From sequence record OR844650: a DNA stretch of 64,000 nucleotides. One strand, written 5' to 3'. The position numbers and the translations under genes were made by a program. Below the pieces are notes generated by a model. The model was not told the origin of the DNA, did no database searches, and saw only the letters and a list, made by a program, of their open reading frames with translations. The stretch is from Escherichia phage ECO103 4-12-1. Positions 32,160 through 32,960 of the stretch are shown one piece after another; the first letter of the stretch is position 1, and every line of letters starts with the position of its first letter.

Positions 32160-32199
32160 GGTTTTAAACTACAGAATTATTTGAATTGAATTACGAAAG

Positions 32200-32300
32200 G
32201 ATTAATTTTAATATTATTGGATTCATCTAACTCATTTCATTCGTTAGCTGAAGAATATTCGTTACTACGTAACTCATATTCATTTAATTAAATTAATTAT
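32200..32300. repeat. AT-rich segment with direct repeat ATTCGTTA (32239 and 32257) and small palindrome GTTAC-TAC-GTAAC
   Basis: read directly from sequence; function unknown. Confidence 0.3.
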
Positions 32301-32329
32301 AAAGAACTTTAAAAGATTTAATACTTGAC

Positions 32330-32835
32330 GGGATTTGTTGAGGACATTTTCATCCCCCCGCAGGGGAATGAAGACAATAAAAAAGAGACAATGAAGTCTC
32401 TATTTCTTGACGCTGATGGTTTCAGCATTTATTGTATTGCGAATTTCTTAAAAATATATTAAGAACGAAAGCGGGTTGCTCTGTTTCTCTCTATCGCAGT
32501 CATGTGCAACGGTCGTCAGTCTTAATCATCCTGACACTCACCTGAAAGTCTATACAATCAAACTTCAGGCTGTTTATTAAAATCACTTAATAAACTCCCT
32601 TAGCAAATCTGGTAAGGTGCGATCCTTATATGTCTATCTAGGAACTCTCTGTATGCTTATCGGAGTTCTTTATTGAGCCGCATTGCCGTGAGGGGTTCAA
32701 ACTATGCCCACATCTAACGGGTTTCTTTTGCTCATCGCACTGTTGAACTGCTCATCTGCCATCTACATTTTCGATAGGATCAGGTTCTAATTTATATGCA
32801 TTTCTGCATTCAACAGGATTGTCATTACTACAACA
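32330..32835. other. ORF-free, GC-elevated, hairpin-rich region; candidate structured non-coding RNA
   Basis: no ORF of 40 aa or more on either strand across about 500 bp in a gene-dense genome; several stable inverted repeats; promoter-like element at 32839 faces into it. Confidence 0.3.
32704..32790 (+). CDS. candidate small hydrophobic peptide (28 aa, MPTSNGFLLLIALLNCSSAIYIFDRIRF)
   Basis: GAGGGG SD 8 nt upstream of ATG; single predicted transmembrane-like stretch; speculative. Confidence 0.2.
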   Translation: MPTSNGFLLLIALLNCSSAIYIFDRIRF

Positions 32836-32838
32836 AAC

Positions 32839-32847
32839 ATTATAGCA
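32839..32847 (-). promoter_or_regulatory. early-type extended -10 promoter GTGCTATAAT (minus strand) facing the ORF-free region
   Basis: plus-strand ATTATAGCACCA, identical to the element upstream of the gp55-like gene. Confidence 0.4.
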
Positions 32848-32911
32848 CCATTTTTAAAATCTTCCCACTAATATCATAAAAAAATAAAAAAAGTACTTAG
32901 TACATTTTTGA

Positions 32912-32948
32912 AGTATAAAAAAACCAAGTAACAAAACATTACTTGGTT
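32912..32948 (-). terminator. rho-independent terminator after the endonuclease gene (AACCAAGTAA/TTACTTGGTT hairpin, U-tract)
   Basis: directly downstream of the 32961 stop. Confidence 0.6.
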
Positions 32949-32960
32949 CATAAAAACTAT

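Follow-up and report, generated by a model that had tools for sequence, protein, structure and literature searches.

A candidate family of large structured non-coding RNAs carried by RaK2-like jumbo phages and by chromosomal islands

What does a phage keep in 838 nucleotides that contain no open reading frame (ORF) of at least 50 amino acids on either strand? The question is raised by positions 32123-32960 of a 64,000-nucleotide stretch of Escherichia phage ECO103 4-12-1 (sequence record OR844650), called the window hereafter, in which the next longest gap of this kind was 316 nucleotides. The first-pass annotation, made from the letters of the window, had called this ORF-poor stretch unusual and proposed a structured non-coding RNA, an antisense RNA over a small membrane-peptide gene or an origin-like element. 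The stretch is indeed unusual, and the elevated GC content of its centre (39.5% in the core at 32320-32838; window mean 34.5%; flanks 22-29%) and the terminators on its two sides were also found. The statement that no ORF of 40 amino acids or more is present held from 50 amino acids upwards but not below, since a 45-amino-acid ORF with a TTG start lies inside the gap at 32325-32462 on the plus strand. As judged from comparison of related sequences, the region is a gene for a large structured non-coding RNA, encoded on the minus strand and belonging to a family not described before. The flanking terminators are as follows.

32132 to 32153 and the T-run behind it, plus strand: terminator, ends the upstream 69-amino-acid ORF
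32949 to 32921, minus strand: terminator

The ORF-free stretch was found to be conserved in about 70 phage records, at 67-100% identity. The window was 98-100% identical to the Asteriusvirus jumbo phages PBECO4, 121Q and G17, and more distant RaK2-like phages matched it as well. Identity of the stretch was 88-100% within Asteriusvirus and 67-77% in Munch and 7t3, GAP32, CBB, Serratia phage BF, Yersinia fHe-Yen9-04, Xanthomonas XbC2 and Erwinia phages. For the RaK2/K64-1 group, BLAST gave no more than a partial match, and a profile search found a full-length diverged copy in RaK2 (154 bits). Blocks of 10-20 invariant nucleotides are kept across genera, and the insertions and deletions among copies are not multiples of three. 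In public records the loci are left blank, marked in part as 'repeat_region' (UE-S1) or annotated with 3-5 short hypothetical proteins; these short ORFs are spurious.

The RNA was found at four places per genome in Asteriusvirus (occasionally three or five), at four or five in most other genera and at two in the RaK2/K64-1 group. The whole genome of PBECO4 contained four dispersed copies in one orientation, each in a gap between annotated genes.

About 38.0-38.5 kb, PBECO4: copy of the RNA
93.7-94.2 kb, PBECO4: copy of the RNA
195.0-195.5 kb, PBECO4: copy of the RNA
304.9-305.5 kb, PBECO4: copy of the RNA, orthologue of the window copy

No further copy was found inside the window. The window copy has a gene of the T4 baseplate family and a small ORF on one side and endonuclease VII on the other, and the copies of GAP32, CBB and Munch lie in the same context. 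In RaK2, as at the 94-kb locus of PBECO4, the order is cytidyltransferase, Dam methylase, a hypothetical gene and the RNA, so at least some of the paralogues are older than the split of these genera. Some copies are syntenic across genera. The flanks are intergenic in all copies, the neighbouring genes vary from copy to copy and no protein gene is consistently adjacent.

The RNA has a conserved fold. Phage records, IMG/VR and metagenomes yielded 33 distinct copies of full length, and the fold model was built on an alignment of 23 sequences (A2). RNAalifold gave 83 pairs, 50 of them with compensatory changes, and a scan for covarying stacks added five pseudoknots (PK1 to PK5) to this fold. The full model contained 98 pairs in 20 helices, the five pseudoknots included. 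Standard pairs occupied 96.4% of the paired cells, as compared with 79.5% after shuffling and 38-45% in slid controls, and 67 pairs were changed on both sides, as compared with 16-26 in the slid controls. None of the 500 shuffles matched the observed values. The two domains and their helices (H) are as follows, all on the minus strand.

32595 to 32832, minus strand: 5' domain, every helix of which has two-sided, pair-keeping changes
32816-32809 with 32747-32740, minus strand: PK1, 5' leader with the H3 loop
32775-32773 with 32763-32761, minus strand: H2
32751-32749 with 32739-32737, minus strand: H3
32734-32730 with 32678-32674, minus strand: H4
32683-32681 with 32632-32630, minus strand: PK2, AUG with CAU
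32668-32663 with 32647-32642, minus strand: H5
32657-32655 with 32604-32602, minus strand: PK3, H5 loop with the GCU just 5' of the invariant UAAGGGAG
32628-32625 with 32616-32613, minus strand: H6
32431 to 32594, minus strand: 3' domain
32595-32592 with 32576-32573, minus strand: H8
32564-32559 with 32552-32547, minus strand: H9
32558-32552 with 32437-32431, minus strand: PK4, H9 loop with the strand 3' of H11
32536-32534 with 32516-32514, minus strand: H10
32510-32506 with 32479-32475, minus strand: PK5, GUUGC with GCAAC in the H12 loop
32498-32494 with 32442-32438, minus strand: H11
32491-32487 with 32471-32467, minus strand: H12
32464-32462 with 32448-32446, minus strand: H13

PK4 and PK5 were paired in about 100% of cases, with four and three covarying pairs, respectively; variants of PK4 include UUGUAU with AUACAA and UCGAAU with AUUCGA. 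The invariant single-stranded junctions include UAAGGGAG in the 5' domain and GAUAGACA. Sequences outside the model also kept it: in five chromosomal copies 89-99% of the pairs were formed and each copy differed from the window by 7-21 double changes, and the distant metagenomic homologue L039 added further covariation in PK4 (UUCGUG with CACGAA). Three candidate helices were not retained. The RNAalifold helix UAAGG with CCGUUG clashes with the covarying PK3 and PK5, the long-range helix GAUG with CGUC had no covariation and is broken in RaK2, and the hairpin GCUGA..UCAGC 5' of the first CGUCA was not conserved in register. Different subsets of copies have optional hairpins of about 30-45 nucleotides, with the motif ..UACAAU/G..GAUCCGUC..AAAAUU, inserted at two sites of the RNA; such a hairpin may represent a mobile mini-insert or else a peripheral module. 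UE-S1 has one such insert and the window phage, its close relative, does not.

A2 columns of about 320-375 and 500-530: optional hairpin inserts, not in the window copy; examples in L020 at 37968-38547 and in L004 at 2515-3061

Which strand is transcribed? In the validated helices G.U cells outnumbered A.C cells by 191 to 18, and five pairs were G.U in nearly every sequence. Such near-invariant G.U pairs would be mismatches on the plus strand, which points to transcription of the minus strand. The U-run 3' of an optional terminator hairpin, described below, is present in the minus-strand sense only. The RNA is thus very probably encoded on the minus strand, in agreement with the promoter of the first-pass annotation. 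An extended -10 element that had been noted on this strand is present, and a -35-like hexamer lies upstream of it.

32839 to 32847, minus strand: extended -10 element TGCTATAAT, pointing into the region
32862 to 32867, minus strand: -35-like hexamer TGGGAA, 17 nucleotides upstream of the -10; consensus over the copies TGGRAC

The start of the transcript would lie near 32832. In the alignment, T[GC]nTATAAT was found at a fixed distance upstream of PK1 in all 26 of the 26 phage copies, and the island copies contained TGnTATAAT (two) or a TATACT -10 (three). Each copy has its own predicted promoter of the sigma-70 type with an extended -10. In the window TGNTATAAT occurred 16 times, against 7.5 expected. 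The promoter of the RNA is better described as belonging to a TGGRAC-N17-TATAAT class, usually with the extended TG. In PBECO4, TG[GA][GA]A[CA]-N16-18-TATAAT was found at 28 sites, 23 of them on the gene strand, and the class occurs upstream of the genes for primase, single-strand-binding protein, DNA polymerase and the late sigma factor. A similar class, 'divergent RpoD-like', was reported for CBB, in which TGAAACG is combined with a TATA -10 upstream of DNA-synthesis genes (PMC5259590), and the class found here may correspond to the middle-type promoters noted in CBB and GAP32. The two plus-strand TTGACG motifs were considered as promoters and rejected, as their -10 is not conserved. With 98 conserved pairs, five pseudoknots, 67 compensatory pairs, the invariant promoter and the G.U excess, the proposal of a phage-encoded structured non-coding RNA is upheld; the alignment with related phages that had been suggested as a check gave both conservation and strong covariation.

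Where does the RNA end? The conserved core ends with the second of two CGUCAA motifs, and a tail of about 170 nucleotides follows it.

About 32832 to 32325, minus strand: conserved core of about 510 nucleotides
32407 to 32412, minus strand: first CGUCAA motif, which reads TTGACG on the plus strand; the same in all 23 sequences of the alignment
32378 to 32401, minus strand: optional hairpin AGAGAC..GUCUCU resembling an intrinsic terminator (stem 32401-32384), then U6
32351 to 32370, minus strand: nearly invariant hairpin CAUUCCCC(UGCG)GGGGGAUG with a UNCG-type loop
32325 to 32330, minus strand: second CGUCAA motif, ending the conserved core (AAAUCCCGUCAAG)
32160 to 32324, minus strand: tail, an AT-rich spacer followed by two hairpins
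32273-32261, minus strand: tail hairpin GUUAC(GUA)GUAAC
32247-32227, minus strand: tail hairpin CUAAC(GAAUGAAAUGA)GUUAG

Two inverted repeats singled out earlier, CCCC..GGGG (within 32351-32370) and AGAGAC..GTCTCT (32384-32401), are present and are both conserved helices. All five pairs of the terminator-like hairpin covary; L039 and two of the PBECO4 copies (94 kb and 195 kb) do not have this hairpin. The very stable CCCC(UGCG)GGGG hairpin is retained even in L039, the most distant homologue. Since this hairpin is kept where the terminator is not, the functional RNA appears to run past the optional terminator. Two forms of the RNA would arise, a short one of about 455 nucleotides that stops at the internal terminator and, by read-through, a long one of up to about 700 nucleotides. 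Direct repeats of 7-8 nucleotides (CGUCAAG) border the module of terminator and G6 run. In RaK2 (L035 1507-1997) both CGUCA motifs, each of them constant over the 23 aligned copies, read CUUCA, and this coordinated change suggests that one factor recognises both sites.

The tail was found to hold one to three hairpins; equivalents occur in nearly all copies and their stems covary. Their tops are conserved as AC-GAA-GU or AC-GUA-GU triloops or as 11-nucleotide loops such as GAAUGAAAUGA and GAACGUAGUGA. The direct repeat ATTCGTTA, recorded twice in the first-pass annotation, occurs at about 32239-32266, and its two copies are the tops of the two tail hairpins and not iterons. The tail motifs were not enriched elsewhere in PBECO4, and a role as genome-wide regulatory sites was rejected on this ground. 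The hairpin at 32132-32159, beyond the tail, makes a good terminator in the plus-strand sense but not in the minus-strand sense. Its equivalents in GAP32, CBB and Munch have T-runs on both sides, so that the 3' end of the long form may vary among phages.

Is the RNA a known one? At the gathering threshold, Rfam 15 gave no match in the whole window to any model, including GOLLD, ROOL, OLE, group I/II introns, RNase P, transfer-messenger RNA (tmRNA) and 6S, and the covariance-model scan that had been recommended thus named no known family. At E values up to 10, weak matches to unrelated small RNA models were obtained, mostly over terminators, and none recurred across eight homologous loci. ARAGORN found no transfer RNA (tRNA) or tmRNA gene in the window. 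No description of the element was found in the full-text literature searched, which included the genome papers on these phages and a 2026 jumbo-phage review. The RNA is longer than about 400 nucleotides and has a multi-helix covarying fold with pseudoknots and no conserved ORF, which are the sequence marks of a large ornate non-coding RNA. It would be a new RNA class within this known descriptive kind, and could prove to have a new type of function.

GOLLD, ROOL and OLE are large 'ornate' non-coding RNAs of bacteria and phages (PMC12286853); large ornate RNAs are also treated in the review of Harris and Breaker, as it is cited in PMC7567579. The RNA described here shares with them a length of about 500-800 nucleotides, many conserved helices with pseudoknots, invariant junctions, carriage by phages, prophages or mobile elements, the lack of an associated ORF and the lack of an assigned function. 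It differs from them in that it does not match their Rfam models in sequence or structure, occurs in lytic RaK2-like jumbo myoviruses and in Enterobacterales hosts, is present in four to five copies per genome and has no tRNA genes in the surrounding 64-kb window. In the Vibrio phage ICP1, an abundant non-coding transcript of about 800 nucleotides was reported from a 1-kb gap without ORFs (PMC7567579). In description, both are long non-coding RNAs, with no assigned role, from a large ORF-free gap of a lytic myovirus. ICP1 has one locus, known from RNA sequencing without a structure model; the present RNA has a structure model without RNA sequencing. The Pseudomonas jumbo phage PA5oct, which belongs to a related clade and is distantly related to the RaK2 group, contains four ORF-free transcribed regions of 236-619 nucleotides, two of which are highly expressed (PMC7318152). 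A profile search of its region with ncRNA001 and ncRNA002 gave no homology to the RNA; ncRNA003 and ncRNA004 lay outside the search.

Is the RNA confined to phages? An intact copy was found in two of 5,426 complete E. coli genomes (440 bits). The copy of E. coli LR-29-1 is part of an island of about 10.7 kb that is bordered by ffs and ybaA (L057 7900-18600) and also contains a tyrosine integrase split by IS3, a small serine recombinase and several hypothetical genes. The RNA of this island keeps its own TGATATAAT promoter and its tail. Further island copies were obtained with a relaxed pattern in a scan of 185,579 species genomes; a stricter first pattern had missed them owing to a 1-nucleotide insertion. 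A large serine integrase is encoded directly upstream of the RNA in Citrobacter amalonaticus and Serratia sp., in Serratia fonticola the RNA adjoins tilS with ParB-like genes and a serine recombinase alongside, and one more copy was present in an Enterobacteriaceae metagenome-assembled genome. A CI-like repressor lies near the copy in the Citrobacter island and in the metagenome-assembled genome. The Citrobacter and Serratia elements may be prophage-like elements or phage satellites, and their edges carrying the RNA are as follows.

L060, 1845 to 4115: element edge with the RNA
L061, 3257 to 5900: element edge with the RNA
L062, 3692 to 7940: element edge with the RNA

The nearest phage relative of the E. 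coli copy is that of Serratia phage BF, with 80.6% identity, and at this distance the island copies are independent lineages rather than recent captures. The small integrative islands with the RNA contain no replication genes. None of the island proteins adjoining the RNA had a homologue in PBECO4, and the plasmid collection gave no match to the RNA. The LR-29-1 island also carries the candidate defence system PDC-M45 (DuOB, DUF488 and mSLOG-DUF4326 proteins). Its mSLOG-DUF4326 protein was 41% identical over 109 amino acids to a PBECO4 gene product (about 54.6-54.9 kb), encoded beside the anaerobic ribonucleotide reductase genes.

What could such an RNA do? On balance we favour a compact folded RNA, borne by mobile elements, that would act in trans and would probably have as its target a component that enterobacterial hosts share, with the copies serving dosage or specialisation. 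The host RNA polymerase would transcribe it from the minus strand, starting near 32832, early or continuously. The RNA would then fold into a compact particle and work in trans as an RNA or RNA-protein machine, and the several copies would supply dosage or specialised variants. We infer the trans action from the knotted conserved fold, the promoter of its own, the old multiple copies, the presence in unrelated islands and the lack of a constant partner. A component shared by enterobacterial hosts would be the likeliest target, given that the RNA is found in unrelated mobile elements which have no partner gene in common. Several points weigh against this reading. The old paralogues at syntenic positions suit a cis-acting, position-dependent role at least as well as they suit dosage. 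Both the trans role and the host target are our own inference, and transcription at this locus is predicted from promoter and terminator signals only. Some copies continue straight into downstream genes. In single-sequence folding the energy was equal on both strands (z = -3.7 each). A lenient, strand-symmetric helix search was noisy and favoured neither strand; it gave many spurious stacks and was set aside for the counts on validated helices. A bolder proposal, which we regard as doubtful, is that the RNA is a new functional particle (a ribozyme or a self-assembling RNA) central to a conflict in which jumbo phages face chromosomal islands. Several copies would be necessary for the phage, and the islands would use their own intact version either to hijack the phage, in the manner of a satellite, or to poison it with a decoy, as a defence; one RNA-bearing island does hold a candidate defence system.

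In ColE1 the pre-primer RNA II, and in phage T4 the oriF and oriG origin transcripts, form an RNA-DNA hybrid that primes leading-strand synthesis; T4 has several such origins per genome, a number similar to the four or five copies of the present RNA, and uses middle promoters for them. A replication origin with a structured pre-primer RNA of this sort, its hybrid forming near the 3' part at the G6 run and the AT-rich spacer, is the main rival of a trans-acting RNA, and we consider it unlikely. The islands would then carry the element for replication by an infecting helper phage, as satellites borrowing an origin. The RNA shares with the ColE1 and T4 transcripts a promoter, a folded length of about 500 nucleotides and a G-run near the 3' part, and with the T4 origins the several dispersed loci per genome and a promoter class that is common to replication genes (as is the similar class of PMC5259590). 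Its syntenic placement across genera suggests that position matters, an AT-rich stretch follows the invariant G6/C4 hairpin, and the integrative islands that hold the element are small and without replication genes. An R-loop origin of the T4 type has a middle-type promoter and then an AT-rich, easily unwound element; here the promoter class is that of replication genes and the AT-rich spacer comes only after about 510 nucleotides of structured RNA. However, 20 helices, five pseudoknots and invariant junctions are more than a primer needs, and the fold is far more elaborate and conserved than in those systems. The tail is itself structured RNA and not a simple unwinding element, and the would-be iterons are the tops of hairpins whose stems covary, as expected of RNA. 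The GC skew gave no origin signal at the four PBECO4 copies, in a genome where it is dominated by gene orientation. No antisense partner like RNA I and no conserved antisense promoter were found among the copies. Neither an antisense regulator nor an origin-binding protein was evident, and the plus-strand TTGACG motifs have no conserved -10.

A cis-acting leader or attenuator, in which the folded RNA senses a signal and sets termination against read-through at the internal terminator, would explain the terminator-like hairpin with its U-run and the many copies that directly precede co-directional genes, with a ribosome-binding site just 3' of the tail hairpin. We hold it to be improbable, as the window copy and its GAP32, CBB and Munch orthologues face a convergent gene, which leaves a leader nothing to regulate, and yet keep the whole unit, tail included; the downstream genes also vary among copies, and several copies have no terminator. 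Quite improbable, too, is a selfish or mobile RNA (intron-like, ribozyme-like or a satellite handle) that spreads between phages and islands by recombination or homing. The multiple copies would agree with it, as would the variable hairpins common to the copies of one genome (H5 in PBECO4 copies 1-3), which suggest gene conversion, the CGUCAAG repeats of 7-8 nucleotides around the terminator and G6 module, the mini-hairpin insertions at two sites, the integrases adjoining the RNA in islands and the endonuclease-like gene beside the window copy. But the positions are stable across genera and most copies have no associated reverse transcriptase, transposase or nuclease; a group I/II intron was rejected outright, for lack of both an Rfam intron match and flanking exons. 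The antisense layout of the first-pass annotation, a type I toxin-antitoxin-like locus in which the minus-strand RNA controls a hydrophobic peptide of 28 amino acids, is hardly credible. The small hydrophobic ORF opposite a non-coding transcript is shared with such loci: the ORF exists where it had been placed, has a Shine-Dalgarno-like GAGGGG and faces a strand that is probably transcribed.

32704 to 32790, plus strand: 28-amino-acid ORF, antisense to the RNA, judged to be no gene

Its ATG context is missing from 14 of the 33 copies and, where it is present, the frame and length diverge after about 10 codons; the ORF appears conserved because the RNA on the opposite strand is. As the ORF is not a gene, the toxin-antitoxin reading fails, and with it the proposed antisense RNA over a membrane peptide. 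In addition, there is no conserved plus-strand promoter, the covariation pattern is that of RNA helices, and the RNA, conserved for its own fold, is about ten times as long as a typical antitoxin RNA. A decayed pseudogene or neutral spacer, which the 3-5 short 'hypothetical proteins' of some records might suggest and which had been named as a possible refutation, is next to impossible: the blocks of 10-20 nucleotides invariant across genera, the 67 pairs with compensatory changes, the indels that are not multiples of three and the four paralogues conserved in one genome contradict it.

Few non-coding RNAs are both large and intricately folded, and no function has been assigned to the majority of those known. 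The copy number, the syntenic retention across the RaK2-like clade and the presence in islands suggest that the family serves an important RNA-based function of jumbo phages that annotation has missed. As its carriers infect E. coli K-12 (e.g., Sharanji) and other tractable enterobacteria, genetics, structure probing, pull-downs and cryo-electron microscopy are feasible.

PBECO4 (RefSeq record) contains other gene-free gaps of 1-2.3 kb, in which the RNA was not found.

151710 to 153706, PBECO4: gene-free gap
156817 to 157841, PBECO4: gene-free gap
343864 to 346145, PBECO4: gene-free gap

Directly upstream of the promoter of the RNA, and outside the RNA, the window contains an endonuclease-like gene.

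32961 to 33932, minus strand: endonuclease-like ORF of 323 amino acids

Pfam assigned to it DUF723, a DUF4379 treble-clef zinc finger and DUF2726. It was not found in G17, UE-S1, PBECO4, GAP32 or CBB, and its DNA had no megablast match among 50,697 phage records. The Salmonella phage Munch contained a gene 47% identical to it at the same site. The ORF looks like an insertion of the free-standing homing-endonuclease type, and an internal repeat was observed in it, at 33307-33383 and 33727-33803.

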